Shown one piece after another: positions 12,351-60,961 of a DNA stretch of 64,000 nucleotides. A program made the position numbers and the translations under genes. The DNA comes from an uncultured bacterium (lineage in GTDB: Bacteria; Hydrothermota; Hydrothermia; UBA1063), in NCBI GenBank assembly GCA_964654765.1, contig CAZZKY010000146.1:14694-78693 (forward strand), written 5' to 3'. Within the stretch, counting starts at the first letter, position 1; every line of letters starts with the position of its first letter. The notes beneath the pieces were generated by a model. That model saw only the letters and a program-made list of their open reading frames with translations. It was not told where the DNA came from and did no database searches.

Positions 12351-12392
12351 AAAAAACGAAAAGGCCCCCTTTTGGGGGCCTTTTCGTTTTTT
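12351..12392. terminator. Bidirectional rho-independent terminator (perfect 19-nt inverted repeat with a 4-nt loop)
   Basis: AAAAAACGAAAAGGCCCCC-tttt-GGGGGCCTTTTCGTTTTTT. It has a GC-rich stem core and A/T tracts on both sides, and lies between convergent genes (PDO + and T9SS cargo -). Confidence 0.8.
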
Positions 12393-12405: not shown

Positions 12406-15400
12406 CTACTTTGTAACTATTATCTTTCTGGTCTCTCTTGATTTTTCTGTAGATATCCTGAGGAAGTAAATACCTCCTGAAAGTTCGTTATTATAGTCTA
12501 TCTTGTGGCTTCCTGGGGTTAATTGACCGGAAAAGATTTTTGCCACTTTTCTTCCGGAAATATCGTAGAGGGTGATTTCAATCTTTTGAGGGCTATTGGT
12601 ATTTACTGTAAAGGAGATTCCACCTTTGAAAATTGTTGGCACAGAAACAAAGAGTGGCCTATTCCAGCCTTCGCTTATTGATGATACGAAGTCGCCGAAG
12701 ATGAAGTCATCAATATACCAGCCTGAACTTACAACGGAACCATCTGAACCAAATCTAAACCTTATTCTGAAGGTATCACCAGCATTAATAGAAGGAAGAT
12801 CGAAGATAGCAATCTCCCATCCTGCGGAGGCGCCGGAGAACCCTGGCTCATTTCCTAATCCGACAACGCTATTTCTTGGATAACCACCTCTCGGTGTGAT
12901 TAGTGTGTAGGGGCCACCATTAATTGATACAGACACGTTACCACCGTCGTAAGCAGTAGTTGAGTATGCTTCCATGTTGTACCAATGGAAGAAGCCAAAG
13001 GTTGGTGCGTTTTGAGTTGCGATAAGGGGTGGTGAATAGAGGCTCCAGTTGGCATTGTCGGAATAACCGCCACTGAGTACAGTAGCCCAGCATTTTTCCC
13101 CGGAGTGAGTGGATGATGGGCCATAAGTTGGTATACCCCATTCCCATTGCGTGCCAGGTTCGGCGACAAAATCACCGTTGTGGTCCTCAAAGTCATAAAA
13201 GGAGTTACAGACTATAAAGTTTTTGCTTAGGGAATTGTTTGTTGGGTCATCGTCGGTAAAGAGGATGTTTAAGTTAGCTGTAAAGTCAAATCCGACCTCA
13301 GGTGGTGTGAAAGGCGCAAAAGTAAGAGTATCCACCTCATCAGGGTTTATTACGGAAACATTAAAGGTGTCAGCATAGATTGTGTCCGAACCATTGACAA
13401 TCAGTAATTCAACATCGACATTCATTTCAGGATTTTGTCCCATATTCCTAACAGTTGCCATAGGTGTGATTTCCTCAATCGTCATAATATCAGGAAGGTT
13501 CAGGAATCCCTCCACGGCAAGGTCATGGGATCTTTCTGGTCTTTTCCAATAGATAGTCAGGTTATCATGAACAACAACAGGGTCACCATTATAAGTATAT
13601 TTAAGATACCAGTCATTTGCTCCTCCATTTCCTTGAATACCGATAGTCGAAGAGTTGAGTGTACCAACCATTGAAAGGTAACTCATTGCGATATCGCCAT
13701 TAGGATAAAGAATTACTTGCATATTATAGGTTCCGGGTTGTGTTGTCCCATAATGTGGTACATTCTCAAAATGTACTACTGCGTAATTTGGGGTGGCAAG
13801 ATACCTGATCTGACCACCTGATGAGGGATCGAGGTCATCCCAGAAGAAAGCAATGAGATAGGAAATGTCTGCATAAGGTAGATCTTGATTGCTAAAAGCA
13901 GTTAAGGTGGTGGTGGATAAAAATCCATTGGAGCAGAGGTATAGCACAGTTACTAAAGTGTCATAAAATGGGAATGCAAAAGGTAGGGTTATAGGTGTGG
14001 TTGCATCATCGTCCAAGGAAATAAGTTCACCTCCTTGAGTATCATACCAAAGAAACTCTGGACCAGTCGGATAGTCAGAGTCTTTAAAGGTATAACCATA
14101 TCCATCTGGGCCACCAGTATGAACGTTGGTAATGACTTCAATGGTTTGTGATGGTTCAGATTCGTGTTGCGGGTCTTCATTGTCGAGTGCGGTTAAGTAA
14201 ACAGATACTCGCCCAGGGACTACCGTAGCAGTGTCGTAAAATGTAGTAGCGGTATCGGTGATGGGATAGAAGTGATGTAAGACATCATTGATATATATAT
14301 TTATTCCTGCTAAGTCATCGAGAGGCGTACCATCCCTTTGGGTACTGGGTGTAATCCCAACAATTTCAATCGTAGATTCATCAATGACGTTTACGGCCGT
14401 AAGGGTAGGAGGTGAGGGCCATGGATCCCCACCAGCATACCAGCTTACTGAGACAGGGACACTTAACGAATCATCGTAAGTCCAGGTTTGAAGGATATAT
14501 GTATATTTTACACCATCGGTGAGGCCATTGTCTTCATATTGTTGAATTCCCTCCCTAACCGTATCGACAAAGGTTGTATCATATGGATTTATCTCTGAGA
14601 CTCTTAAAATTTTAATTCTAAAGGTGTCAAGGGGAGTCCCATCTACGCGTGTTGCTGGGTCTGTCCAGGATAGGCTCATACTGGTTGGCGTTGTGTAATC
14701 CGAATAAGCGGAAAGGTTGATGGGCGGTAGAGGATCACCAGGTTCTCCTGGAAGTTGAACAATTGCCTCTATATTCCAGTTATAATTTAGGTCATAATTT
14801 CTAAGTTCCCCCCATCCAAGACTTGCCGCATAAACGAAATCTCCCTTTTCTGGAACTGCTGGTCCCATATCAATAGAAATGGGATATTCTCCTGCTGCAT
14901 GGGTTATCTCGATAGATACCCAAAGGTCTTTAGTATTGTCGATAATAACCGGGTTAGTTAACTCTATTTCTATCCACCCTGGTGCTGGGGCAGAGTAAGT
15001 TTGTGAAGTGATAAGGTTTCCTGGCGCAGATGTTGTCCCTTGGTCATAGATTTTCACCTGGCCACTGTGACTACCTTCATGATGGTAAAACCTGACTTTT
15101 ATTAGCTTCCAGTTATTGTAAGGCCCCAGTTCCGATGGTGTAAGCCTTATTGCCGCCTCAAAAGTTCCACCATTGGATAATCCAATTGCATTATTGTCCA
15201 CAGAGTTATAATAATATAAGGTGTCTGTAGGTTGTTTACCTGAGAACTCAGCTTGAGGGTGAGGTATAGCATGTCCTCTCCCAGCGGTGCTGAAGAGAAG
15301 GACCTCTTCCTTTTTTACTTCTGCCGGTTTACCCACAGTCAGGGTGCCGGCTACTAACAGCACTGAGAGCAGATAAATCATAAACACCTCCTGTAATATA

Positions 15401-15432
15401 ATAACAATAAAGGAATTTTTTGGTTTAGTCAA
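12406..15432 (-). CDS. Large secreted multidomain protein (1008 aa) with a T9SS/Por C-terminal sorting domain; function unknown
   Basis: N-terminal signal peptide ('MIYLLSVLLVAGTLTV'). The Thr/Ser/Asn/Gly-rich beta-sandwich modules include FN3-like segments and lectin/MAM-like 'FRIRFRFGSDGSVVSSGWYIDDF'. The C-terminal ~80 aa ('ITLYDISGRKVAKIFSGQLTPGSHKIDYNNELSGGIYFLRISTEKSRETRKIIVTK') match the T9SS CTD pattern. Confidence 0.7.
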   Translation of the reverse strand: MTKPKNSFIVIILQEVFMIYLLSVLLVAGTLTVGKPAEVKKEEVLLFSTAGRGHAIPHPQAEFSGKQPTDTLYYYNSVDNNAIGLSNGGTFEAAIRLTPSELGPYNNWKLIKVRFYHHEGSHSGQVKIYDQGTTSAPGNLITSQTYSAPAPGWIEIELTNPVIIDNTKDLWVSIEITHAAGEYPISIDMGPAVPEKGDFVYAASLGWGELRNYDLNYNWNIEAIVQLPGEPGDPLPPINLSAYSDYTTPTSMSLSWTDPATRVDGTPLDTFRIKILRVSEINPYDTTFVDTVREGIQQYEDNGLTDGVKYTYILQTWTYDDSLSVPVSVSWYAGGDPWPSPPTLTAVNVIDESTIEIVGITPSTQRDGTPLDDLAGINIYINDVLHHFYPITDTATTFYDTATVVPGRVSVYLTALDNEDPQHESEPSQTIEVITNVHTGGPDGYGYTFKDSDYPTGPEFLWYDTQGGELISLDDDATTPITLPFAFPFYDTLVTVLYLCSNGFLSTTTLTAFSNQDLPYADISYLIAFFWDDLDPSSGGQIRYLATPNYAVVHFENVPHYGTTQPGTYNMQVILYPNGDIAMSYLSMVGTLNSSTIGIQGNGGANDWYLKYTYNGDPVVVHDNLTIYWKRPERSHDLAVEGFLNLPDIMTIEEITPMATVRNMGQNPEMNVDVELLIVNGSDTIYADTFNVSVINPDEVDTLTFAPFTPPEVGFDFTANLNILFTDDDPTNNSLSKNFIVCNSFYDFEDHNGDFVAEPGTQWEWGIPTYGPSSTHSGEKCWATVLSGGYSDNANWSLYSPPLIATQNAPTFGFFHWYNMEAYSTTAYDGGNVSVSINGGPYTLITPRGGYPRNSVVGLGNEPGFSGASAGWEIAIFDLPSINAGDTFRIRFRFGSDGSVVSSGWYIDDFIFGDFVSSISEGWNRPLFVSVPTIFKGGISFTVNTNSPQKIEITLYDISGRKVAKIFSGQLTPGSHKIDYNNELSGGIYFLRISTEKSRETRKIIVTK

Positions 15433-42068: not shown

Positions 42069-43274
42069 ATGGAGTCTATTAAGCTCATATTTAAAATAGG
42101 TTATGGGCCTTCTTCATCCCACACAATGGGTCCTGTTGAAGCTCTCAGAGGGTTTTTGAAAAAGTTTCCTGAGGTGGTTTCTTTGAAGATTACACTTTTT
42201 GGAAGTCTTGCTGCCACAGGTAAAGGTCATCTTACTGAGGAGGCTTTGCGAAAGTCTTTTAATGGTAAATTGGAAATTTTGGAAAAACCTGATGAGTATT
42301 TCCCGCTACATCCCAACGCGTTAAAATTTGAGGGCTTTGATAGTTCAGGGAATCTTATCGCCGAAAAGGTTTTTTATAGCATTGGGGGAGGTGTAGTAAA
42401 GACGGAAGATGATTTTTTTAAAAAAGAAGATGTCTATCCGTTAAATACGATGGAGGAGATTCTGGATTGGTGTGACTCAGAGGGAAGAAGCTTGTGGGAG
42501 TTTGTTGAAATTTACGAGGGAAAAGAAATCTGGGGTTATTTAAAAGAAGTGTGGAAGGTAATGGAGGATTCAATAGCTCGGGGTTTGAATAATGAAGGTG
42601 TTCTTCCTGGGGAGTTACACCTTCCCAGAAAGGCATGGTCATACTATATTAAAGCGGTTAATTCTAAAAATATTACACACAATAAGGGTAAGGTCTTTTC
42701 TTATGCCCTTGCGGTGGCTGAGGAGAACGCTGCAGGAGGACTTATTGTGACAGCGCCTACCTGTGGCTCATGTGGAGTTGTCCCCGCTGTGCTTCACTTT
42801 TTAAAAGAAGAGTATAACCTTTCTGAAGATAAGATTCTGAGAGCCCTCGCTACCGCAGGTCTTATGGGGGCGCTTGTTAGAGAGAATGCTTCCATTTCCG
42901 GGGCAGAAGTAGGTTGTCAGGGAGAAATTGGAGTTGCCTGTGCTATGGCTGCTGCAGCAGCTACTCAAATTCTTGGAGGAACAATCTTTCAGGTTGAATA
43001 TGCCGCCGAAATGGGGATTGAGCACCACCTCGGACTAACCTGTGACCCAGTTCTTGGATACGTACAAATCCCCTGTATTGAAAGGAATGCAGTTGCAGCC
43101 GGCAGGGCTTTAGAGTGTGCAGTTTATGCCCTTCATTCCGACGGGAGACATATGATTTCTTTTGATTCAGTTCTTAAGACAATGATGGAAACGGGAAGGG
43201 ATCTCCCTTCGGCCTATAAAGAGACTGCAAAAGGGGGACTTGCCCTTCATTGGAGAGATAGAAAAAAGAGATGA
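42069..43274 (+). CDS. sdaA: L-serine dehydratase ([4Fe-4S]-dependent), single-chain short form
   Basis: 401 aa. The N-terminal 'IGYGPSSSHTMGP' matches the SdaA 'GPSSSHTxGP' motif, and the cluster cysteines sit in 'CGSCGVVPAV', 'GCQGEIGVACAMA' and 'CDPVLGYVQIPCIERNA'. Confidence 0.8.
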   Translation: MESIKLIFKIGYGPSSSHTMGPVEALRGFLKKFPEVVSLKITLFGSLAATGKGHLTEEALRKSFNGKLEILEKPDEYFPLHPNALKFEGFDSSGNLIAEKVFYSIGGGVVKTEDDFFKKEDVYPLNTMEEILDWCDSEGRSLWEFVEIYEGKEIWGYLKEVWKVMEDSIARGLNNEGVLPGELHLPRKAWSYYIKAVNSKNITHNKGKVFSYALAVAEENAAGGLIVTAPTCGSCGVVPAVLHFLKEEYNLSEDKILRALATAGLMGALVRENASISGAEVGCQGEIGVACAMAAAAATQILGGTIFQVEYAAEMGIEHHLGLTCDPVLGYVQIPCIERNAVAAGRALECAVYALHSDGRHMISFDSVLKTMMETGRDLPSAYKETAKGGLALHWRDRKKR

Positions 43275-44497
43275 CATTTCTCTTAAAAATTGTTGTTAGC
43301 TATTACATATTTATCCCAATGGATAATACACAATTTGACCACCTCAGGGCTTATGGGGTGGTCTATAACTCTTTAAGAGCTGGAGTGAAAGCAGAATGGA
43401 TTCTTAATTTTAGAGGCGGTTCTTTTCTCCTGGATGATACAAAGGTTGTGCGCGAACTCCTTTCCATTACAGGAGTATCCTATGAAGTGATTCCCGAAGA
43501 AAACGTGGTAGAACTTCAAGAACGTTCTAAAAGTGAAAATTTTGAGTTCGTTATTCTTGAAAATGCACCAAGGGTGGGTGTTTATGCACCTCCTTATTAT
43601 GAGCCGTGGGATGATCCAGTTATTATGGTTCTTGAATATGCCCAAATCCCTTTTGAACAGATATACGACGAAGAGGTCTTAAATGGGCGTCTTAAGGATT
43701 TTGACTGGGTACACTTGCACCATGAAGATTTTACAGGACAATTTGGCAAGTTTTATGCTTCTTATGGAAACACGGATTGGTACAAAAATCAGGTGGAATT
43801 TAAAAAGTCGCTTGCCATAAAGCTTGGGTTTAAAAACGTGGCTGAATTGAAAAGGACTATTGCTAAGACTTTTTATAACTATGTCAGTGAAGGTAAATAC
43901 TTATTTGCCATGTGCTCTGCCCCCATAACCTTAGATATTGCTCTCGCATCAGAAGGCGTTGATATTCTGGATATTCCTTTTGATGGAACACCCTTTGATC
44001 CTAATTGTAATTCTAAACTCGACTATTCAAAAACTGTTGCTTTCAGGGACTTTAAGCTTTTTCCACAATTTTATATATATGAACATTCAGATGTGGATAT
44101 GACTCAGGACGTAGTACAGTTGGGAGAGGAAAATGCATACTTCGTCCTGCACCAATTTTCGCCTAAGACCGACCTCATACCCTGTATTCTTACCCAGAAT
44201 CATAAAACGGTCATAAAAGATTTTCTGGGACAGGATACTGGCTTCAGAAGAAGTAAATTGAAAAAAAATACGGTGGTTCTTGGTGATGTCCCAGGAACTG
44301 AATATGTCAAGTATGTTTATGGTGAGCTGGGAAAGGGTTTTTTTGCCTTTCTTGGAGGCCATGACCCCGAAGATTTTCAGCATTTTGTGGGCGATCCACC
44401 TACGGATGTCGCAAAATATAAGAATTCCCCAGGGTACAGGCTGATTTTGAACAACATTTTTTTGCCTTCAGCCCAGAAGAAAAGGTTAAAAACTTAA
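43271..44497 (+). CDS. Hypothetical protein (408 aa), translationally coupled to sdaA; possible class-I glutamine-amidotransferase-like (ThuA/Glyco_hydro_42M-like) fold
   Basis: ATGA overlap with the sdaA stop. No signal peptide and no canonical family motifs were recognised. A weak nucleophile-elbow-like 'LFAMCSAPITLD' and 'FDWVHLHHEDFTG' suggest an amidotransferase-like fold. Confidence 0.4.
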   Translation: MTFLLKIVVSYYIFIPMDNTQFDHLRAYGVVYNSLRAGVKAEWILNFRGGSFLLDDTKVVRELLSITGVSYEVIPEENVVELQERSKSENFEFVILENAPRVGVYAPPYYEPWDDPVIMVLEYAQIPFEQIYDEEVLNGRLKDFDWVHLHHEDFTGQFGKFYASYGNTDWYKNQVEFKKSLAIKLGFKNVAELKRTIAKTFYNYVSEGKYLFAMCSAPITLDIALASEGVDILDIPFDGTPFDPNCNSKLDYSKTVAFRDFKLFPQFYIYEHSDVDMTQDVVQLGEENAYFVLHQFSPKTDLIPCILTQNHKTVIKDFLGQDTGFRRSKLKKNTVVLGDVPGTEYVKYVYGELGKGFFAFLGGHDPEDFQHFVGDPPTDVAKYKNSPGYRLILNNIFLPSAQKKRLKT

Positions 44498-45121: not shown

Positions 45122-45717
45122 CATTTGTTTTTGAGATAAGGCCAAGCATCTAAGATTACAGGGAGTCCTCTTGCTATGCAAATAATAAGAGATATCCAGG
45201 CGAAGGCAAGGGCAACTCCATGAATGTTGAAAGACAGTTTTCCATGGATGGTTAGGAGGTCAATCCCAAGAAGAGTAAAAGCGATGGCCTTTGAGAGAGC
45301 GTAACCGGTTCTGAAATAGCCTGAGGTTACAATAAATCTGGCGATCTTGTTATTGTGCATCTCGTAAGGTTTTACACCTTTCTTGAAAGCCGAACTCCTT
45401 ATTGTATCTACTACAACATCCCTGGTTATTACAATTACTGGAAACCAAAAGGAGATCCGTCCCTTTACTGCGAAAAAGATCCAGAATATGAATTCAACAA
45501 TGCGGTCGCCCGTAATATCAAGTATGGCACCAATCTCCGATTCTGCATTGAGGGTTCTTGCAAGGAAGCCATCAAGGAAGTCTGTAAATATTATTATTAC
45601 GATTAAAATGCAGGCTGCAAAGGTAGTTCCATACCTACCAAGGTCAAGAAGATAGAGGGTTAAAAAGCTGAGTAGAATTCTCAGGATACTAATTATATTT
45701 GGTAGGTTCCTTCTCAT
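45121..45717 (-). CDS. CDP-alcohol phosphatidyltransferase family protein
   Basis: 198 aa. 'DFLDGFLARTLNAESEIGAILDITGDRIVE' matches the D-G-x2-A-R-x8-G-x3-D-x3-D signature. Confidence 0.8.
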   Translation of the reverse strand: MRRNLPNIISILRILLSFLTLYLLDLGRYGTTFAACILIVIIIFTDFLDGFLARTLNAESEIGAILDITGDRIVEFIFWIFFAVKGRISFWFPVIVITRDVVVDTIRSSAFKKGVKPYEMHNNKIARFIVTSGYFRTGYALSKAIAFTLLGIDLLTIHGKLSFNIHGVALAFAWISLIICIARGLPVILDAWPYLKNK

Positions 45718-48700
45718 TTTACCACTACTACTTTTTGGATTGTTTTAATGTTTTCGGCTTCTACTTTTATAAAGTATACTCCAGGGGTTGCGTTTTCAAA
45801 AGGAATTTGGATAATAGAGTAGTTTGTGTCTGCTTGGATTTCTGTTTTAGTAAACAGACTGCCATAAATATTGTAAATGGATACTATAAAGGGCCCAGAA
45901 ATTCCCGAATAGATTTTTAATTTGAGAGGTGATCCCACTTTAATAATGTTATTGATAACGAGCTTCTTAAGGTTTAAACTGTCTCTGACGACTGATGAGT
46001 CAATTATATAAGCGAAATATTCTCCTCCCTCGATATTTCCGTTCTGTGTTAAAGGCCTTGGCACTTGCCACTGCAAAGTGCCGCCGTCTTCTGTTGAGTA
46101 GGAACCCACAGCGATGTAAATAACATTTAAATTTCCATAAAGTGAGAGATCAATGACTCCTTCTAAATAACCAAGGTCGCTGAAATAGGAAGCGCATTTA
46201 AAATGGATTGTGTCTGTTATTAAGGTACCTGTTGAATCAAACCACCCTACAAAATCATTGTTGTCTTCATCAGCTAAGAAGAACTGATATCTTCCAACTT
46301 GTCCCAGCTTTGCCCATGGCGCATTTACCATGGTAGAAGGTTCAAAAGATATGAATATGAAATGATCGTTAAAAAAGTATCCTGACTGATTCGCTGAGGC
46401 ATTACCTGCGGATTCAGTAGCAACATAAAGCCTCTTTGTATTTCGATCGTAGTACCCGTAAAGATGCATATTTTCGTTTTGGGCTAATAGGACAGCAACT
46501 CTATCAACGACGCCGTCCATGACAAAATCTTGGAACCCGACGGTGTATGAATAATTCTGGCCATTATTATTGTCCCAGTTCTCATTTTGATAGGGTGAGT
46601 TGTCTTTCGCACGAATAGCAAAATATACCCTTGTACCGGTAGGTTGGGGAGGTAGGTAAACACCGTAAAGTGCAGAATCTGGTTCGTGATTTCCATTATA
46701 ATCCCGACTTTGGCCATCATCGGGAAACATTTGAATATCAGTGTAAGATTGCCAGTTGTTGTTTGTATATCTTACCCAAGCGCCCAATATCCCAGACGGA
46801 TCGAGAATATTACTGGTCACAAGTACACTATCCATTTCGAGTATATTATAATTCGGGCTAAAAGTTGTATTCCAGATTCTTGGACCTTCCCTGTCTCCAG
46901 GACCCGGGACATCTACGTCTGGATCATCTTTTCCAGCGTAAAAGTAAATTGTGTAAGTTCCATTTCTTCCTCCAACTTCTATAAGCTCTGCTCCCGAGGA
47001 CATTTTGCCAAGGAAATTAAAGGTTAATCCAGTCCCTGAAGGATAAAGGAATACGGCTTTAATAGAATCGTAAAGGCTTTCGTATCCACCATAGGTCCAG
47101 CCGTTTTCACTGATCCCGTAGAGAGGCCTCATATTGTATCTGCGAAGAAGCTGTTTATAGAGTGAAGGAGTTACACCAGCCTTTGTCCAGTTGGAGTAGG
47201 TAGAGGAGTAGGTTATTGATACATAATTTTTACCAGTGGTCAGTTTTATTGTTTTAGTCAAGTCGTTCTGAGGAGTTCCGTTCCATGCATAACGCTCTGT
47301 GAAAGTAATAACTGCGGTGTCACCGAAGTAAGACACATTCACGTCAAACCATGAATTTTCACCTTGCGAATCGTTAAAAAGACCAGGGTGTCCCCCATCG
47401 TTATAATCACCTTCACCGTTCCAGTTGCTCATAAGATTTCCCACCACACAAGAAGGATCGGAAGTAAATACTGCAAGGGCTCGACCTCCCCTCCGATCAA
47501 AAATTAAGCACAATTTATCATTGTAAATTGTGTATTCTTTAACTCCATCTGCATCCAAGTCAAGGCTGTCAATTTTTGGGATTTCTTGAAATCTGAGAGA
47601 GTCAAGCCAAATTGCACCGTAACCGAAAATTGCTCCGTATCTTGTGTGGTTCCACAAATTTTTCCCCCAGTAAACGAGTTCTCCGCCAGGGCCAGTATGC
47701 CAAGCGGTTTCATAAAGCATAGAAGACAATGTGAGCCACCCCAATTTTGAAAATTCGTTATCTGGAGTATTCATAAGGTAGTTGTATGCAAATTTCCACA
47801 GATCTTCATAATCACCGTTAATTCCATTTCCATTCAAGTCAGGTCCATTCTCGCATCCCCATCCTACCGCTGATTTGAAATTGTTGTACCAGTTGTCATA
47901 AGTACCACCAGTCCAATCGTGGAGTTCCTGGTAGGTTGCATAATCTATATTTATGATTGGTGGGTCGTTATAGGGATCACTGTCGTAAATTTTATCAACC
48001 CCCCACCATTTTACTGCCTCGGCAATGTGAATGGGTTGTATCCAGTTTTGCTCTTTTATGAACCTTATATTCCAGTCATAACTAGAAGCGGGTGCCCCTG
48101 GCTGACCGAAATCCCAGCCCGCAACCCCTGCTGCCTTTTCCCAGTCGTCGCCATAAATTACTATCTGTTCTTGATCCGGGTCGTTTGCAAGGGAAGATAG
48201 GAGTTGATGTAAAGGATTTGAAGGGTTAGATACGTCATTCCAGACCATCTGATCCCTGGCAACTTTTTGAATAAATACAACAAAGACATAATTGCCTTCA
48301 CTATCAAACATTCTATGAACTTTCCGTGAATTGTTGCAGATGCTACCATCAGGGTAAGTATGAGAATACCACTCGTGGACATTATCATCTAAAACAATAC
48401 AGGGTGCAAGGTATCTACCCTGCGAATCATATTTACCGTATTCTTCGTTTAAGACCTTAATTAAAGAGTAGGGCATAAGGAGTTGTGACTTGAAAACTCG
48501 TTCTGGAACCCATATTACATTCGGATATTCAGGCCATCCAACTCCTTTAATTGAATTCTGATATAATGTTTTTGCGTACCAGAGTGAAAACTTATTTATG
48601 TTTCTATCAACATAAGGCATAATATGTTCTGCATAAGTACCGCCGACGAGGTAAACCAAATCTCCTCGGAGCCTATTAAGTAAACCACGATCGTTTTGCA

Positions 48701-48929
48701 TCCACGTATAAGATTGAGTTAGTGTTCCTGAAATATGTATGTCAATAGGGCAGTTGTAATATTCATGGGTATCGAGGGTGCGGTGGAAAGAGTTACCATT
48801 GTATCCATAGTCCCCAGGTCTCAATGCATAGTAGCCGTTGTCTGAGAAATGCTGGTTTCCATGATGTAAAAAAGCGATTTTTGCAGTTCCACCTAAAAGT
48901 ATAAGTTTAATTATTATTGCAAATAGCAT
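45714..48929 (-). CDS. Large secreted protein (1071 aa) with GH57-like glycoside hydrolase motifs and a T9SS/Por C-terminal sorting domain
   Basis: Signal peptide 'MLFAIIIKLILLGGTAKIAF'. The candidate GH57 conserved regions are 'FLHHGNQHF' (CSR1-like), 'LVGGTYAEHIMPYV' (CSR2-like HPILP), 'VIWVPERVF' (CSR3 with the nucleophile Glu), 'YGDDWEKAAG' (CSR4-like) and 'AEAVKWWG' (CSR5-like). The C-terminal 'FIVSIYNIYGSLF...PGVYFIKVEAENIKTIQKVVVVK' is a T9SS CTD. Confidence 0.55.
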   Translation of the reverse strand: MLFAIIIKLILLGGTAKIAFLHHGNQHFSDNGYYALRPGDYGYNGNSFHRTLDTHEYYNCPIDIHISGTLTQSYTWMQNDRGLLNRLRGDLVYLVGGTYAEHIMPYVDRNINKFSLWYAKTLYQNSIKGVGWPEYPNVIWVPERVFKSQLLMPYSLIKVLNEEYGKYDSQGRYLAPCIVLDDNVHEWYSHTYPDGSICNNSRKVHRMFDSEGNYVFVVFIQKVARDQMVWNDVSNPSNPLHQLLSSLANDPDQEQIVIYGDDWEKAAGVAGWDFGQPGAPASSYDWNIRFIKEQNWIQPIHIAEAVKWWGVDKIYDSDPYNDPPIINIDYATYQELHDWTGGTYDNWYNNFKSAVGWGCENGPDLNGNGINGDYEDLWKFAYNYLMNTPDNEFSKLGWLTLSSMLYETAWHTGPGGELVYWGKNLWNHTRYGAIFGYGAIWLDSLRFQEIPKIDSLDLDADGVKEYTIYNDKLCLIFDRRGGRALAVFTSDPSCVVGNLMSNWNGEGDYNDGGHPGLFNDSQGENSWFDVNVSYFGDTAVITFTERYAWNGTPQNDLTKTIKLTTGKNYVSITYSSTYSNWTKAGVTPSLYKQLLRRYNMRPLYGISENGWTYGGYESLYDSIKAVFLYPSGTGLTFNFLGKMSSGAELIEVGGRNGTYTIYFYAGKDDPDVDVPGPGDREGPRIWNTTFSPNYNILEMDSVLVTSNILDPSGILGAWVRYTNNNWQSYTDIQMFPDDGQSRDYNGNHEPDSALYGVYLPPQPTGTRVYFAIRAKDNSPYQNENWDNNNGQNYSYTVGFQDFVMDGVVDRVAVLLAQNENMHLYGYYDRNTKRLYVATESAGNASANQSGYFFNDHFIFISFEPSTMVNAPWAKLGQVGRYQFFLADEDNNDFVGWFDSTGTLITDTIHFKCASYFSDLGYLEGVIDLSLYGNLNVIYIAVGSYSTEDGGTLQWQVPRPLTQNGNIEGGEYFAYIIDSSVVRDSLNLKKLVINNIIKVGSPLKLKIYSGISGPFIVSIYNIYGSLFTKTEIQADTNYSIIQIPFENATPGVYFIKVEAENIKTIQKVVVVK

Positions 48930-49391: not shown

Positions 49392-51362
49392 ATGGCAAAG
49401 GTAGCTTTAAAGAAAGTAGTTTTTTATGTACATTATTTAGAGAGAGAAAGATTGCTGGAGCGACTTCAGGACGAGGGACTCGTCCATTTCACCGAAATTA
49501 GGCGGGATTTAAAAGATGAATTCGAAGTTACTCATCTTTCTGAGGTTGAATTTGAATCCCATCTCGAGTCTGTATTAACACGGCTTTCTAATGCTATAAA
49601 GTTTCTTGAGAGTTATACCCGTAAAAAATCTTTTATAGAGAGCTTATATGAAGCAAAAAAGCCTGTTGAGAAGAAAGAATTTTTCAGGATAGCGCGCTGT
49701 GTTGAACCTGGTACAATTCTCGTTCAGGTTGAGACCCTTGAGCAAGAGTTGGCTCAGTTAGCCCAAGAAGAGTCCAACCTTTTGGCTCAGAAGAATTTCA
49801 TTTTACCTTGGGTTAATCTGGAATACAATCTTGAAGATATAAAGAGTACCGATGAATTGGTAATGGCGCCGGGTTCACTGCCCAGCGGTAAAATAGCTGA
49901 CCTTGAGGAACTCCCTTTGGCATGTCAACTTGTATATGATGATGGCAAAAGGGCCTATGTTGTTCTAATTTACCACAAAAAGGACGAGGATTTAATTCGA
50001 CCAATTCTACAGGAAAAAGAGTTTGAACCTGTTGAGTTCCACGGTTACCATGGTCGCCCTGCTGAAATTCTAAGAGAATTGGATGAAAAACTTAACATCC
50101 TTGAAGAGGAAAAGAAAAATTTAAAGCAGGCAATTGAAAAAGTTTCCAGGCATTATGATGTACTTACCATATTATACGATTATTATCAATCAGTTTACAA
50201 TAGAGAGTTGATAGACAACCGTGGGCTAAAGACTGCCAGTATCTCGGTTTACCAAGGTTATGTGAGGGAAAGAGAGCTCGCAAGGCTTGAAAAAGTCTTT
50301 TCCGAATTTGAAACTGCCTACTATGAAGTAGTTGAACCAGAAGATGGAGAGGAAGTTCCCGTTGAATTGGAAAACAGGAAGATTTTTAAACCGTTTGAAG
50401 GTCTGGTGAAGATGTATGGGCTTCCCTCTCCCATTGACCCTGACCCTACTGCGATCATAACGCCCTTTTTTATTCTATTTTTTGGGATTTGCTATGGAGA
50501 TGCCGCCTACGGATTACTACTTTCATTACTATCTATCTGGTTTATGAGGAAGCTGAAAATTTCAGCACCCCTTTTATGGATTCTTTTTGCTGGTGGAATC
50601 GCCTCCATGATTTTCGGTGCTATTACAGGCGGGTGGTTCGGGGATTTCTTTGAAAGGGCAAATATAGGTTTTCTCAATGCGTTTCGAAGGAAGATGATGG
50701 TTTTTGACCCAATGAATGATGTGATGACCTTTTTTGCTTTAACGATTGCCCTTGGTTTCATTCAAGTAAATGTGGGACTTGCAGTAAATGCCTACAAGAG
50801 GATTAGAGAGGGAGATACCATTGGGGCCATTTCTCAGCCTATTGCCTGGATAGTTATTTTATCTTCCCTTGTTTATCTTGGTCTTTTTGCAGGTAAGATT
50901 TCAAATCCACTGCTTAATAACACGGTGAAAGCACTGGCACTATTTTTCGTCCTATTAATGGTTTTGTTCAGTTCAAGGCATAGCAGGAATTTTGTTATTC
51001 GTATTGTGAAAGGTGCCTATAATGTTTACAATGGTGTTGGCTTCATAGGGGATCTTCTTTCCTACGTGCGTTTGATGGCTCTTGGCCTAACTTCCTCTGG
51101 AATTGCAATGGCTATCAATATCTTAACTCTGCTCGTTTGGCAAATTCCCATTGCTGGTTATATTCTTGGACCTTTGGTCTTTATTTTTGGGCATTTGTTC
51201 AGCCTTGCGATAAATATTCTCGGTTCAATTGTGCATCCGTTACGTTTGCAATATGTTGAGTTTTTCAAGCAGTTTTATGACGATGGTGGGACACCGTTCC
51301 TTCCTTTGAAGTGGGAGGGAAAATACACTGAAATTGTTGAAATTAAAAAACAGGAGGTGTAA
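49392..51362 (+). CDS. atpI: V-type ATPase subunit I (membrane a-subunit)
   Basis: 656 aa with an N-terminal ~330-aa soluble coiled-coil domain and C-terminal multi-TM domain. The essential Arg lies in 'LSYVRLMALGL'. Confidence 0.9.
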   Translation: MAKVALKKVVFYVHYLERERLLERLQDEGLVHFTEIRRDLKDEFEVTHLSEVEFESHLESVLTRLSNAIKFLESYTRKKSFIESLYEAKKPVEKKEFFRIARCVEPGTILVQVETLEQELAQLAQEESNLLAQKNFILPWVNLEYNLEDIKSTDELVMAPGSLPSGKIADLEELPLACQLVYDDGKRAYVVLIYHKKDEDLIRPILQEKEFEPVEFHGYHGRPAEILRELDEKLNILEEEKKNLKQAIEKVSRHYDVLTILYDYYQSVYNRELIDNRGLKTASISVYQGYVRERELARLEKVFSEFETAYYEVVEPEDGEEVPVELENRKIFKPFEGLVKMYGLPSPIDPDPTAIITPFFILFFGICYGDAAYGLLLSLLSIWFMRKLKISAPLLWILFAGGIASMIFGAITGGWFGDFFERANIGFLNAFRRKMMVFDPMNDVMTFFALTIALGFIQVNVGLAVNAYKRIREGDTIGAISQPIAWIVILSSLVYLGLFAGKISNPLLNNTVKALALFFVLLMVLFSSRHSRNFVIRIVKGAYNVYNGVGFIGDLLSYVRLMALGLTSSGIAMAINILTLLVWQIPIAGYILGPLVFIFGHLFSLAINILGSIVHPLRLQYVEFFKQFYDDGGTPFLPLKWEGKYTEIVEIKKQEV

Positions 51363-51363
51363 A

Positions 51364-51834
51364 TTGACTGCAGGACTTTGGTTATCAATACTTGGTGCTG
51401 GACTGGCGACCTTTTTGCCGGGTCTTGGTTCAGCAATAGGGGTTGGCACGACAGCAAGGGCTGCTGCAGGTGTTCTTTCTGAAGATCCAAGTAAGTTTGG
51501 AAGGTTGTTTCTCCTGGTAGCCCTTCCAGGTACTCAGGGTTTTTACGGATTTATTGCGGCTCTCCTTGTCATAATTAAAGTTGGTCTTTTGGGTGAGGTT
51601 AAGCCTCTTGATTTCATGCAGGGGCTTCAGATTTTCCTTGCCACTATTCCGATAACTTTTCTTGGGTACTTTTCAGCCATACATCAGGGTAAAGTGTGTA
51701 CTGCTGGTGTTGAGATGGCTGCTAAAAAGCCCGAATCTTCCATGCAACCAGTTATTTATGCAGGTTTAGTTGAAACTTACGCTGTTCTTGGCCTTCTTGC
51801 TACTATATTTATTCTACTTGGCATTAAGGTTTAA
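51364..51834 (+). CDS. atpK: V-type ATPase subunit K (proteolipid c-subunit)
   Basis: A TTG start after the AGGAGG RBS ('LTAGLWLSILGAGLATFLPGLGSAIGVG'). It has four TM helices and the ion-binding Glu in 'GLVETYAVLGLL'. The upstream ATG at 51334 overlaps atpI and is less likely. Confidence 0.85.
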   Translation: MTAGLWLSILGAGLATFLPGLGSAIGVGTTARAAAGVLSEDPSKFGRLFLLVALPGTQGFYGFIAALLVIIKVGLLGEVKPLDFMQGLQIFLATIPITFLGYFSAIHQGKVCTAGVEMAAKKPESSMQPVIYAGLVETYAVLGLLATIFILLGIKV

Positions 51835-51845
51835 GGAGGTCGATA

Positions 51846-52421
51846 TTGGGCCTTCAAGAGATACTGAATAAAATTAAAGAAGAGACTGAACTTAAAAGGC
51901 GAGGAATCCTCGATAGAGCAATAGCTGAAAGAGAAAGAATCCTGAAAGAAGCGGATGCTCGAGTGGAGGAAATTCTTCATAAAGCCCAGCAGGAAAAGGA
52001 GAAGCTGGTAATTCAAAAGCTTAATGCACTAATTGCAGATTACGAAATAAAGTCAAATGTTGAAATTGCTAAAATAAAAAGGGAAATTTTGAAAAGGGTT
52101 TACGAAAAGGTCCAGAGGTACATAATCGAAAATAAGCAGATTTACAGCGAGATTGTAAGAAAGCTGTTTGAACTGGTTGAATTGAATGGAGATGAGGAAA
52201 TATTTGTTCAAGAGGGTGAGTCGGTAATCAACAGGGATTTCATAGACCAGATAAACAGGGAAAAGGGTTGGAAATTGAAGCTATCAGAGAATCCTGTCAG
52301 GATCAGTGGTGGATTCATTGCGAAGGGTCCAAATTCGGTTATAGACGCTTCCATAGAGAAACTCATCGAAATTTTACAGGAGGAGACTGAAGTTCATGTG
52401 TCAAACATTTTGTTTTTCTAA
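51846..52421 (+). CDS. atpE: V-type ATPase subunit E (peripheral stalk)
   Basis: 191 aa. It has an N-terminal long charged helix and a C-terminal globular domain, occupies the position after K, and has a TTG start with an AAGGAGG RBS. Confidence 0.8.
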   Translation: MGLQEILNKIKEETELKRRGILDRAIAERERILKEADARVEEILHKAQQEKEKLVIQKLNALIADYEIKSNVEIAKIKREILKRVYEKVQRYIIENKQIYSEIVRKLFELVELNGDEEIFVQEGESVINRDFIDQINREKGWKLKLSENPVRISGGFIAKGPNSVIDASIEKLIEILQEETEVHVSNILFF

Positions 52422-52430
52422 GTAACAGTT

Positions 52431-53450
52431 ATGTTAAAATTACCGTTTAATAGGTATCCTTCTTTTGGAAAAGATGACCCTGAATATGCCTATGCGTGTG
52501 GAAGGATAAAGGCTCTTGAGACAAAACTGCTGGATCGTGTAAGGTTTGAACGCCTTGCAACTTCAAAAGATATAGAGGAACTCTTCAAGATGCTTCAGGA
52601 TACGGAATATTCAAGGTACTTAAACGAAATACACAAGCCTTCAGACTTTGAGATTTTGCTGAAAAAAGAGCTTGAAAGGCTTTTCTCCTTAGTTTCTGAA
52701 TTGTCAGTAGAGCCAGCCCTTGAAAGGGATCTAAGGCTGCCATACGATTTTTTAAATTTGAAAATACTTGTGAAGTCCCTTATTTTCGAAAAGGACTTTT
52801 CGCACGCCTTTTCTAAGTACTCTTATTATCCTGCGACTTTGCTTAAACACGAACTTGAAACTGGCAAAGGTGATATGCTTATGAAAGAAATTTATGATGC
52901 TTATGAGTATGCAATTTCCTCCTATTATGAAACCAGGGAAGTCTTCAGAATTGATTCAGCGGTCGATAATGTGATGTATGGATATTTCGCTAACTCTTCA
53001 TTTTTTGAGTTTTTAAGAATCTACTACAATTTAAATGCAGACCTCAAGAATTTAATATCCTTTTTAAGACTTGAAAGGATGGGAAAACTGCAAGCCCTAA
53101 AACATGTTTTACTGGCTGCAGGATATTTGCCTCAGGAACTCTTCTATAAGGTCCCAGATTTTAACACTTTACTATATGAGATAAGGCATACAGTTTATTA
53201 TCAAGTTCTTCAACCGGGGTACGCACAATATCAGAAGACTGGAAGTTTCGTTAAGATGGAAAAGGATGTTGCCAATTACTTGAACGGCCTTGTTAAAGAG
53301 GCCTCCAAAAAGGATCTTTCGGTGGAAGTATTAATATCCTACTTTTTCAGAAAGAAATACGAGGTCTCCTTACTCAGGATGATTATGGTATCAAAACTTA
53401 ACCAACTCCCCAAAGAAATTGTTATTGAAAGAATTCCGGAGGTATTATGA
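52431..53450 (+). CDS. atpC: V-type ATPase subunit C (archaeal-type C / eukaryotic d)
   Basis: 339 aa, an all-helical protein in the conserved position between E and F. Confidence 0.8.
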   Translation: MLKLPFNRYPSFGKDDPEYAYACGRIKALETKLLDRVRFERLATSKDIEELFKMLQDTEYSRYLNEIHKPSDFEILLKKELERLFSLVSELSVEPALERDLRLPYDFLNLKILVKSLIFEKDFSHAFSKYSYYPATLLKHELETGKGDMLMKEIYDAYEYAISSYYETREVFRIDSAVDNVMYGYFANSSFFEFLRIYYNLNADLKNLISFLRLERMGKLQALKHVLLAAGYLPQELFYKVPDFNTLLYEIRHTVYYQVLQPGYAQYQKTGSFVKMEKDVANYLNGLVKEASKKDLSVEVLISYFFRKKYEVSLLRMIMVSKLNQLPKEIVIERIPEVL

Positions 53451-53755
53451 AAAGGGTGATTTGCCTTGGAAAGTATGAAACGGTATTTCCTCTGAAAGCC
53501 ATAGGAATGGAGTATAGGGTTTGTAACACTGGCGAAGAAGCAAGAGAAGCCCTCAAGAGTCTTATTTCTCAGAATTACGGCTTGATTTTTATAGAGGAGG
53601 ATTATTTTCAAAGTGTTAAGGATATCGTTGATAGTTTGAAAGAGCAGGCATACCCTGCCGTAACTTTCATTCCTGGTGCGGGTGGAAGTACCGGCCAGGC
53701 AAGGGAAAAGTTGAGAGCAATTTTGCTTAGAGCCATTGGAATTGACATCTTTTAG
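53447..53755 (+). CDS. atpF: V-type ATPase subunit F
   Basis: 102 aa. '[20 protein letters not shown]...[11 protein letters not shown]' shows the flavodoxin-like fold typical of F. There is an ATGA overlap with atpC. Confidence 0.8.
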
Positions 53756-53765
53756 GAGGTTGAAA

Positions 53766-55523
53766 ATGAAATCAGGGCGAATCGTTAAAGTTTCAGGTCC
53801 TCTCGTTGTGGCCGAAGGTATGCTTGGTACTAAGATGTACGACGTTGTCTACGTTGGAGAGATGAGACTTTTGGGGGAAGTTATCGAATTGAAAGGCGAT
53901 AGGGCTTATATACAGGTTTATGAAGATACCCACGGGATAGGCCCCGGAGACCCAGTCTACGAAAGCGGTTATCCTCTTATGGTTGAACTTGGTCCTGGAC
54001 TTATAGAGTCTTTCTTTGACGGTATTCAAAGGCCCCTTGATAGAATAAAAGTTTTATCAGGCGATTTTATTTCCCGTGGTCTTCATGTACCTGGATTGCC
54101 CAGAGACAAGAAGTGGTTCTTTGTTCCAAAGGTGAAAAAGGGTGATGTTGTAGAAGAAGGCGATATCATAGGCGAGGTCGATGAGACTACTCTGGTAAAG
54201 CACAAAATAATGGTCCCGCCAGGTATTAACGGTGTTATCGATGATATTAAAGAGGGCGTTTTCACGGTGGAAGATGTGGTTGCGGTAGTTAAGGATAAGA
54301 ATGGAAAACTGCACGAGATTAAGATGATGCAGAAGTGGCCCGTAAGAATCCCAAGGCCCTATAAAGAAAAACATCTACCTGATACTCCCATGTTCACAGG
54401 GCAAAGAGTAATCGACACCTTTTTCCCTATTGCCAAAGGTGGTACTGCATGTGTTCCCGGACCTTTCGGATCAGGTAAAACTGTTATACAGCATCAGCTT
54501 GCCAAGTGGTCTGATGCTAACATTGTCGTTTACATAGGTTGTGGTGAGCGCGGTAATGAGATGACTGATGTATTAATAGAATTCCCAGAGTTGAAAGACC
54601 CTTATTCCGGACAGCCCTTAATGAAAAGGACTGTTTTGATCGCTAACACTTCGAATATGCCTGTAGCGGCGAGAGAGGCTTCCATTTACACCGGGATCAC
54701 TATTGCAGAGTATTTCAGGGATATGGGGTACTCCGTTGCTCTTATGGCCGATTCAACATCAAGATGGGCTGAAGCGATGAGAGAGATTTCAGGGCGTCTT
54801 GAAGAAATGCCAGGAGAAGAAGGTTATCCCGCGTATCTTGCAGCAAGGGTTGCCAGTTTTTACGAAAGGGCTGGGAAAGTCACTTGCCTTGGAAAGGATA
54901 ACAGGGAGGGAACCCTTACTGTGATTGGAGCAGTTTCCCCTCCCGGTGGTGACCTTTCAGATCCAGTGGTTCAGTCCACTCTTAGAGTTGTTAAGGTATT
55001 CTGGAGCCTTGAAGACAAACTCGCCTACAGAAGGCATTTCCCTGCCATCAACTGGCTGACCAGTTATTCACTTTACAGAGAAAGCTTAAGGCCCTATTAT
55101 GAGAAGAATGTGGCTCCAGACTTTTACGATATGGTTCTTGAAGCAATGAAAATTCTTGAGAAGGAAGCGGAACTGGAGGAGATTGTAAGGCTTGTTGGCG
55201 CAGAGGCATTGTCTCAAGATGACCAATTGCTTCTGGAAATAGCAAGAAGTATAAGAGAGGATTTTTTGCATCAAAACGCTTTTCATGAGGTAGACACTTT
55301 CGCATCTATAAGAAAACAGTACCTAATGCTCAAAGTTATATTAAAACTTTACGAAATATGTAAAGACATCATTGCAAAAGGTGAGACAACGGTGAAGGAT
55401 TTAAAGAAGAAACCCGTTTGGGAAAAAGTGGCGAGGATGAAATATTTTTCAGAGGATGAATTGGGTGAAATTGAGAAATTGTTAAAGGAGATTGATCATG
55501 AAGTTAGACAGCCAGTTGGTTAA
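53766..55523 (+). CDS. atpA: V-type ATPase catalytic subunit A
   Basis: The start is '[19 protein letters not shown]' after AGGAGG. Walker A is 'GPFGSGKTV', and the A-subunit non-homologous region is present. The length of 585 aa rules out an intein. Confidence 0.95.
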
Positions 55524-56907
55524 AAAGAGACTATCAAAATTTAACGCTGTTACCAATATTTCAGGTCCTCTAATGCTCGTTGAGGGCATCGGTGGTGTTA
55601 AATACGGTGAGCTTGTAGAAATTGAATTACCTTCTGGTGAGATTAGGAGGGGCGAAGTTTTACAGGTAGAAGAAGATAAGGTTTTATTGCAGGTTTTTGA
55701 GGGTACCTCGGGAATTGACATTCCAAAAACCTCAGTAAGATTTCTTGCAAAAGGTCTTGAAATTAACCTTTCCATTGATATGCTTGGGAGAGTTTTTAAT
55801 GGTCTCGGTCGCCCGATTGATGGTGGTCCCGAAGTAGTTCCTGAAGAGAGAGCAGATATTAATGGGGCACCAATAAACCCTTATGCCAGGGATTATCCAA
55901 ATGAATTTATTCAAACGGGTATTTCTGCAATTGATGGTTTGAACACCCTCGTTAGGGGGCAGAAACTTCCTATCTTCTCCGGCTCTGGTTTACCACATAA
56001 CAGGCTTGCTACGCAGATTGCCAGACAGGCAAAAGTTCGGGGAGAGGGTGAAAGTTTTGCAGTAGTTTTCGCTGCAATGGGTATTACCTTTGAAGAAGCA
56101 GAGTTCTTTATTAAAAGCTTCAGGGATACAGGTGCTATTGGTAGATCAGTCCTTTTTATAAATCTTGCCGATGACCCTGCAATAGAGAGAATAGCAACTC
56201 CAAGAGTTGCTCTAACTACCGCTGAGTACCTTGCATTTAAGAAAGATATGCATGTCCTTGTTATTCTTACCGATATGACAAATTACTGTGAAGCACTGCG
56301 CGAGATTTCTGCGGCGAGAAAGGAAGTTCCGGGAAGAAGAGGATACCCTGGATACCTTTATACTGATCTTGCCACTATTTATGAAAGAGCCGGGCGAATA
56401 AAAGGCAAAAAGGGCTCCATTACCTTAATTCCCATTCTTACTATGCCTGAAGACGATAAGACCCATCCCATACCTGACCTAACGGGCTATATAACGGAAG
56501 GCCAAATCATCCTTTCCAGGGCACTGCACAGGAAAAAGATTTACCCACCCATAGATGTCCTTCCTTCCCTTTCGAGGTTGAAGGATAAGGGAATTGGTAA
56601 AGGTAAAACGAGAGAGGACCATTCCGACGTTTTTAACCAGCTCTTTGCGTGTTATGCAAGGGGTAAAGAAGTTCAGGAATTAGCAGTAATTCTCGGTGAG
56701 GGTGCGTTATCAGAAATTGATAAAATTTATTCTAAATTTGCAGATCTCTTTGAAGAAAAATATGTGGGTCAGGGGGAATTTGAAGACAGGAGCATCGAGG
56801 AGACTCTTGATCTCGGTTGGGAATTACTTTCTATGTTTCCGACTTCTGAGCTTAAAAGAATTAGGCCTCAGTTTATTGAGAAGTATTTGAAGAAAGCAGA
56901 GAGTTGA
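55492..56907 (+). CDS. atpB: V-type ATPase subunit B
   Basis: 471 aa with '[10 protein letters not shown]...[27 protein letters not shown]' and the degenerate P-loop region 'SGSGLPHN'. Confidence 0.95.
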
Positions 56908-58846: not shown

Positions 58847-58849
58847 GAA

Positions 58850-60640: not shown

Positions 60641-60961
60641 ATGAATAGTATGCCGATAGAAAAAATCATAGAAGAGTTCAATAAAAAAAATGGTCTGAAG
60701 TTGAAGGTAGAGTTTTTTAAAATTGAAAGTTATCGCTTAATGGTGACTTTTTGCAGTAAAGGTAATCACAACGAAAATAACTTTGATGAGGAGATTGTTG
60801 AATTTGGGAATTTTCTGAGTATTAACGCAGGAACAGACTACGACCTTATTAGACTTTACAGATTGGGAGGTGGTCGTTTTGTTGGAGTTTTTGTTCCCGA
60901 TAGTGATAGAATGAAAGAGGTTATCGATTTTGGGTTTGAGCCCTTTGATATGCTTTTATGA
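60641..60961 (+). CDS. Small cytoplasmic hypothetical protein (106 aa), translationally coupled to the downstream beta-barrel gene
   Basis: No signal peptide. There is an ATGA overlap with the next gene. The weak roadblock/LC7-like pattern 'YDLIRLYRLGGGRFVGVFVPDSD' is speculative. Confidence 0.35.
   Translation: MNSMPIEKIIEEFNKKNGLKLKVEFFKIESYRLMVTFCSKGNHNENNFDEEIVEFGNFLSINAGTDYDLIRLYRLGGGRFVGVFVPDSDRMKEVIDFGFEPFDMLL

Follow-up and report, generated by a model that had tools for sequence, protein, structure and literature searches.

The gene on the minus strand at 12406..15432 of a 64,000-nucleotide stretch of DNA from an uncultured bacterium (contig CAZZKY010000146.1; the whole stretch is hereafter called the window) raises the question of what a large secreted protein with a type IX secretion system (T9SS) tail does in a host outside the Bacteroidetes, and whether that tail is a genuine export signal. 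A preliminary description had proposed a 1008-residue (aa) secreted protein of beta-sandwich modules ending in a T9SS C-terminal sorting domain (CTD), and had taken this as a hint of Por-type secretion in a non-Bacteroidetes lineage. Our analysis indicates that the gene probably encodes a 991-aa non-enzymatic binding or adhesion protein of the cell surface of a WOR-3 (Ca. Hydrothermia-type) bacterium, exported by Sec and T9SS; residues are numbered throughout in this 991-aa version. The protein is an ordinary T9SS-type cargo of a known class and, because it is routine and already so labelled by the NCBI pipeline, it is of little importance alone. Its value is that of a pointer: WOR-3 / Hydrothermia, thermophiles with one cultured strain, possess a conserved set of surface proteins tagged with a CTD, and the host here is a hot-spring bacterium.

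The C-terminal tail and the limits of the gene

The C-terminal 83 residues score 39.3 bits with TIGR04183 against a cutoff of 23 and, within the whole protein, 34.4 bits with PF18962 against a gathering threshold of 27 (39.5 when scanned alone), the match reaching to 2 residues from the stop codon. A family profile built from 22 CTDs of this family and of module-sharing relatives matches CTDs in F. johnsoniae translocon complexes (8glk_D at E 1.3e-5, 8glj_D at 6e-5) and the CTD of RgpB (5hfs) at E 6e-4, and more weakly those of mirolase (8qb1) and PorU (6za2). In an AlphaFold (AF2) model, aa 909-991 form a beta-sandwich that follows a flexible linker at 901-908, where the predicted local distance difference test (pLDDT) falls below 50. 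Judged by these matches, the C-terminal region is a bona fide T9SS type A sorting domain, and the proposal made earlier is borne out by both hidden Markov models (HMMs).

A tail of the same type ends a second protein of the window, a 1071-aa product of 45714..48929 (minus strand) that is unrelated to the target and scores 28.5 bits with TIGR04183 against 23. Further, WOR-3 genomes carry several proteins in which a CTD follows a C25 peptidase (C25+CTD) or a BNR domain (BNR+CTD). The occurrence of the CTD on all of these argues for a lineage-wide sorting tag. Because it always lies at the exact C-terminus of many unrelated signal-peptide proteins of the lineage, the tail is better read as a sorting signal than as a structural repeat.

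The extent of the gene needs one correction. The open reading frame (ORF) at 12406..15432 is uninterrupted, and its translation is identical to the 1008 aa described before, with FRIRFRFGSDGSVVSSGWYIDDF and GIYFLRISTEKS...K; the minus strand is an addition made here, and the length is the part that does not stand. Translation almost certainly begins at the ATG at 15381 and not at the TTG at 15432, since a GGAGGTG Shine-Dalgarno sequence lies upstream of the ATG at 15385-15391, the resulting 991 aa equal the called length of a 99% identical metagenomic homolog (P0001), and its Met aligns with Met1 in 14/14 orthologs of a 15-sequence alignment. The TTG at 15432 opens a -35-like TTGACT hexamer (15427..15432, minus strand), part of a promoter-like TTGACT-17-TATTGT whose match is one of consensus, with a frequency not above that in shuffled sequence. 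The TTG-opened 1008-aa frame can be seen as a case of ORF over-extension into the 5' untranslated region. At the other end, an intrinsic terminator separates the target gene from a convergent thioredoxin-fold gene.

12406..15381, minus strand: most likely coding sequence, 991 aa plus the stop codon at 12406-12408 (from the ORF, the ribosome-binding site and the ortholog alignment)
15382..15432, minus strand: 17 extra codons, probably 5' untranslated region, containing the ribosome-binding site and the promoter-like TTGACT-17-TATTGT (15432-15404)
12351..12392, both strands: bidirectional intrinsic terminator, a 19-bp stem with T-runs on either side

Passenger modules and their relatives

The domain layout was derived from Pfam and NCBIfam HMMs together with the AF2 model (pLDDT 82), which is all-beta and has seven domains and a disordered linker before the CTD. 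A signal peptide is followed in order by a lectin-like jelly roll, two FN3 domains, a NIDO-like domain, CARDB, an InhA-type MAM domain, the disordered linker and the CTD, as set out below.

15322..15381, minus strand: signal peptide, aa 1-~20, MIYLLSVLLVAGTLTV followed by GKP (ortholog-leader alignment; pLDDT <35 in the AF2 model)
15235..15321, minus strand: N-terminal linker, aa 21-49 (pLDDT <50 over residues 1-50; 38% mean ortholog identity)
14743..15234, minus strand: lectin-like jelly roll, aa 50-213, of the DUF4082 / Cwp84 'Lectin_like' type
14428..14742, minus strand: FN3 domain 1, aa 214-318
14128..14427, minus strand: FN3-like domain 2, aa 319-418 (no HMM match; a structure search matches FN3 tandems)
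13534..14127, minus strand: NIDO-like domain, aa 419-616, opening with an invariant GGPDGYGY-F-DSD motif
13198..13533, minus strand: CARDB immunoglobulin-like (Ig-like) domain, aa 617-728
12682..13197, minus strand: MAM domain of the InhA-like type, aa 729-900, containing FRIRFRFGSDGSVVSSGWYIDDF
12658..12681, minus strand: disordered linker SSISEGWN, aa 901-908 (pLDDT <50), a candidate CTD-removal site
12409..12657, minus strand: T9SS type A CTD, aa 909-991 (TIGR04183, PF18962, CTD profile, AF2 beta-sandwich)

The leader is hydrophobic and without Cys, and it aligns with the classical leaders of 14 orthologs, which have the form M(K/R)-h-region-A followed by GKP. From inspection of this alignment it appears to be of the signal peptidase I type, with no lipobox Cys, in agreement with the signal peptide claimed before. 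The N-terminal linker behind it is predicted to be disordered and is poorly conserved. Within the passenger, CARDB (PF07705) and InhA-like MAM (PF20773) score above their gathering thresholds and take the CARDB Ig-like and MAM jelly-roll folds, respectively; FRIRFRFGSDGSVVSSGWYIDDF, the motif quoted in the preliminary description, forms the final pair of strands in the MAM domain. The fn3 assignment (PF00041) stays under the Pfam threshold, as do the scores of DUF4082 (PF13313) and Lectin_like (PF18560) for the aa 50-213 module, and NIDO (PF06119) gives a partial match of 20.5 against a threshold of 25, short of full-domain membership. The NIDO-like fold weakly resembles sugar-binding supersandwiches. 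A secreted multi-domain beta-sandwich protein, as first described, is supported by the HMMs, the AF2 model and the CTD. Of the label lectin/MAM-like or 'choice-of-anchor'-like then given to one module, the choice-of-anchor part was dropped, as no choice_anch_* NCBIfam model matches at E<=1.

The passenger has no recognisable catalytic domain: searches of Pfam, NCBIfam and PDB sequences returned no catalytic family, and the full-length protein, compared with PDB sequences, gave no match at all. The invariant His100 and His105 of the N-terminal domain might raise the suspicion of an enzyme that the searches did not recognise, with the lectin-like or NIDO-like domain acting, for example, on glycans or as a peptidase. 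We consider this very improbable, given these searches, the presence of the same modules beside true catalytic domains in other proteins, and the behaviour of the HEGSH string at aa 101-105, which was rejected as a zincin HExxH because orthologs differ in its spacing and its residues and because it sits in a beta-hairpin loop.

About 35 collinear relatives with 44-99% identity were found among 5.8 billion clustered proteins, and the only named one (P0005) is a 'T9SS type A sorting domain-containing protein [candidate division WOR-3 bacterium]' of the NCBI pipeline. Relatives from GTDB species genomes come from WOR-3, Ca. Hydrothermota and Ca. Hydrothermia metagenome-assembled genomes (MAGs) at 49-62% identity, along with one Zixibacteria protein that shares modules. 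In the genomes searched, collinear orthologs, with 47-99% identity, are restricted to MAGs of these three groups, so the idea of a non-Bacteroidetes lineage holds; in NCBI taxonomy WOR-3 is now the phylum Caldifarciminota, which stands directly under Pseudomonadati and not within the 'FCB group' clade. Among GTDB species representatives, the target finds its best match at 62% identity, by a peptide-pattern search that could miss a closer one, and the lineage of the window may lack a close representative genome. In four WOR-3 genomes (loci L002, L004, L006, L008) the ortholog stands tail-to-tail with a thioredoxin-fold/nadA/nifU/nifS block, as it does in the window, while the opposite flank differs between genomes. 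This conserved synteny indicates vertical inheritance.

Beyond the orthologs, the modules travel separately. An exhaustive HMMER pass over 1.84 billion representatives gave 10,736 proteins at E<=1e-3, of which 913 reach E<=1e-30; full-length collinearity was seen in only two representatives, and the remainder share single modules, often in proteins of 2,000-5,500 aa. Dozens of unrelated CTD proteins, from Cloacimonadota-like and further lineages, contain the lectin-like module at 46-60% identity. In two proteins (P0036 and P0039) the FN3-FN3-NIDO cassette follows a subtilisin (Peptidase_S8) domain on the same chain, and in other matches NIDO-like or lectin-like modules are joined to C25, M14 and sialidase domains. 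Because they are shared with protease and CTD proteins, the cassette and the lectin-like module are best understood as accessory binding modules. Mean identity among 13 orthologs is 65-68% in the lectin-like, NIDO-like and MAM modules versus 40-43% in CARDB and the CTD, which supports a division of labour between binding modules on the one hand and spacer and signal on the other.

On the favoured reading of a surface-binding protein, the signal peptide would lead the chain through Sec into the periplasm, where it would fold, and the type A CTD would be recognised by a T9SS-type outer-membrane translocon. The disordered linker (aa ~901-908) would then be the place where the CTD is clipped; if P. 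gingivalis is a guide, a PorU-type sortase may cut in SSISEGWN. The passenger, a string of six beta-sandwich modules, would afterwards be attached to a surface glycolipid or released. Its distal lectin-like jelly roll, NIDO-like and MAM modules, the most conserved ones, would bind a ligand, and the FN3 pair and CARDB would serve as spacers. A glycan or a proteinaceous polymer is the most plausible ligand, as suggested by the lectin-like jelly roll, the MAM module and the weak likeness of the NIDO-like fold to sugar-binding supersandwiches.

The fusions to subtilisin, C25, M14 and sialidase domains also speak for a different function, in which the protein, released or held at the surface, captures substrate for secreted proteases (gingipain-like C25, subtilisin) and supplies their binding modules in trans. 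In one Hydrothermia genome, moreover, the ortholog lies beside a C25 cluster. We give this possibility little weight, since the adjacency to C25 is not conserved and folC occupies that flank in the window.

T9SS-exported S-layer proteins with CTDs exist, for example TfsA/TfsB of Tannerella, and they count towards a structural envelope or coat (S-layer-like) protein that would be exported in the same way and self-assemble on the outer membrane. The fact that the ortholog is single-copy and keeps its locus throughout the lineage, the combination of a strong ribosome-binding site with a strong terminator, and the thick envelope of strain sy37 (PMC12285271) would fit such a protein. It is nevertheless unlikely: the sequence resembles no known S-layer family, modules of this kind serve proteases and giant adhesin-like proteins as accessory binding domains, and no S-layer has been reported for sy37 (PMC12285271). 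A binding or adhesion function stays the preferred one.

Export machinery and genomic surroundings

If the tail is a sorting signal, a T9SS should be encoded somewhere in the genome. No core component (SprA/Sov, PorV, PorU, PorK/L/M/N) was found in the window (secreted, membrane and unknown ORFs, scanned with Pfam and NCBIfam), in the 9 kb upstream of it on a near-identical contig (L009; ENA ERZ27289263 k141_54169), or at the flanks of orthologs and module sharers (loci L002-L014; ~120 kb of related loci). Exact look-ups of the genes at the end of the window returned no record. The sequence surveyed corresponds to ~10% of a genome, and the absence of core genes from it therefore means little. 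Directly upstream of the window, positions 1..4898 of contig L009 encode a MshEN+T2SSE ATPase, T2SSF and two N_methyl pilins (type IV pilus / type II secretion system-like), in agreement with the observation of pili on sy37, the cultured strain of WOR-3 (PMC12285271).

A candidate for PorU was offered by a 1123-aa C25+CTD protein, encoded 6 kb from an ortholog on a 1.05-Mb Hydrothermia contig and belonging to a family that is near-universal in WOR-3. It was rejected, as RgpB and Kgp are matched end to end (RgpB at 1e-19) and with the PorU model NF033707 it reaches 45.6 bits, the cutoff being 420. The WOR-3 C25+CTD paralogs, four in all, were rejected likewise (40-62 bits with the same model and cutoff), and phmmer searches of PDB with them recovered RgpB and Kgp at 1e-10 to 1e-19, with PorU (6za2) unmatched at E<=1. 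On these scores, the WOR-3 C25+CTD proteins are gingipain-like and not demonstrably PorU.

The paralogs form part of a conserved WOR-3 C25 cluster that lies outside the window (L006 1..9846; L013 4517..23441, CP070686.1; L014 4485..23456). Its order is pgsB, pgsC, a poly-gamma-glutamate (PGA) system protein, two unknown ORFs, an LVIVD-repeat protein, a C25 peptidase+CTD of ~1150 aa, a BNR/Ycf48-like+CTD protein and three further C25+CTD paralogs. Capsule-type PGA genes always precede the four CTD-tagged cysteine peptidases, and one of the two unknown ORFs (~330 aa) resembles an outer-membrane beta-barrel.

These results bear on the possibility that the tail is merely a homologous Ig-like fold that no T9SS uses, with WOR-3 lacking the canonical machinery and the protein leaving the cell by another or highly divergent route, or not at all. 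The missing core genes, the gingipain matches and low PorU scores of the four C25+CTD paralogs, and the position of WOR-3 outside NCBI's FCB clade all agree with this, and a relationship between the CTD fold and the Ig-like domain of FlgD can be detected. Such a reading seems improbable to us, because the T9SS CTD models outscore FlgD_ig on the tail, the constant place of the tail at the very C-terminus of many otherwise unrelated proteins with signal peptides marks it as a sorting signal, and an absence within a tenth of the genome weighs little. A related scheme, likewise of low probability, is that a canonical PorU and perhaps further parts of the core are missing from WOR-3, and that the CTD is read by a divergent or reduced system of outer-membrane export and attachment; one of the four gingipain-like C25+CTD paralogs beside the PGA genes might then be the sortase, and a polymer other than lipopolysaccharide the anchor. 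Por-type secretion, at which the preliminary description hinted, may be used by the WOR-3 lineage and is inferred from the CTD.

T9SS is widespread in Bacteroidota, and Chlorobiota, Ignavibacteriota, Rhodothermota, Gemmatimonadota, Cloacimonadota and Fibrobacterota are named as possible holders, with the system described as absent from phyla not on this list (PMC11285876). Its occurrence outside Bacteroidota would therefore not be new in itself. Our literature search found no paper that links WOR-3 with T9SS.

Several points weigh against a T9SS-exported binding protein. WOR-3 is missing from the published list of T9SS-bearing phyla (PMC11285876), and the description of the first isolate (PMC12285271) and a survey of 181 MAGs (PMC12542636), supplements included, make no mention of T9SS or of secretion systems in general. 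No core component was found in the window or in the related loci examined. In the protein itself, the signal peptide has no basic n-region and carries Val at -1, and the fn3, NIDO and DUF4082/Lectin_like assignments all lie under Pfam thresholds. Complete WOR-3 genomes would be informative in either case: a T9SS core present in them would extend the range of type IX secretion to another deep phylum, and its absence would mean that the CTD is read by something else.

Further features of the window are as follows. The V-ATPase mentioned in the preliminary description is real, a V/A-type ATPase operon at 49392..56907 (plus strand) with subunit I at 379 bits and K, E, C, A and B assigned by position and sequence, and it fits the accompanying remark on archaeal-like bioenergetics. 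Two adjacent paralogous secreted proteins with DUF3857 follow at 56948..60589 (plus strand), the first also with a transglutaminase-like core, and after them comes a 446-aa signal-peptide protein (60958..62298) that ends in ...FKLVF, has no family match and may be an outer-membrane barrel. A 408-aa ORF at 43271..44497 (plus strand) has no Pfam or NCBIfam match at E<=1. The second CTD protein (45714..48929) contains a CBM21-like starch/glycogen-binding module at aa 718-794 (Pfam 24.0 against 28.9; PDB match to the CBM21 of PPP1R3C at E 2.5e-4), while no family of Pfam, NCBIfam or PDB matches its N-terminal ~650 aa; the protein may act on glycans as an enzyme not yet characterised. The 64-kb window contains neither tRNA genes nor Rfam matches at gathering thresholds.

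Comparison with known systems

The closest parallels are the T9SS type A cargo proteins of Bacteroidota, such as RgpB, mirolase and NucA/RemA of F. johnsoniae. In common with them, the protein has a signal peptide, a beta-sandwich passenger, a flexible linker and a C-terminal Ig-like domain of ~80 aa with ..YD..GR.V.. and G.YF.+....K motifs. In contrast to them, its host belongs to WOR-3 (Caldifarciminota), its passenger has no catalytic domain, and its secretion machinery, CTD cleavage and anchoring are putative.

Individual modules point to other families. PF20773 matches the MAM-type jelly roll at aa 729-900 as well as the C-terminal modules of InhA/M6 and M36 metallopeptidases, and this jelly roll also matches the C-terminal non-catalytic part of the NCBIfam models for rhombosortase-, myxosortase- and T9SS-dependent M36 peptidases. 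However, the accessory region alone is matched, at 40.8 bits against an equivalog cutoff of 1700, and the metallopeptidase domain is absent. The N-terminal module can be compared with the lectin-like domain of C. difficile Cwp84 (PF18560; PDB 4ci7), with an HMM score below threshold; unlike Cwp84, which has a Gram-positive host and another mode of anchoring, the target has no adjoining protease.

Parallels extend to animal matrix and adhesion proteins. The strings FPFY..., SNGFL and FWDDL are presumably NIDO signatures, FN3 is a further shared module, and MAM occurs in receptor phosphatases, meprin and the scavenger receptor SR-C. Unlike in the animal NIDO proteins, the HMM match is partial and below threshold and the setting is one of bacterial outer-membrane export; the likeness is one of module type. 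Like nidogen, mucin-4 and tectorin, which contain NIDO, the protein combines extracellular interaction modules on one chain.

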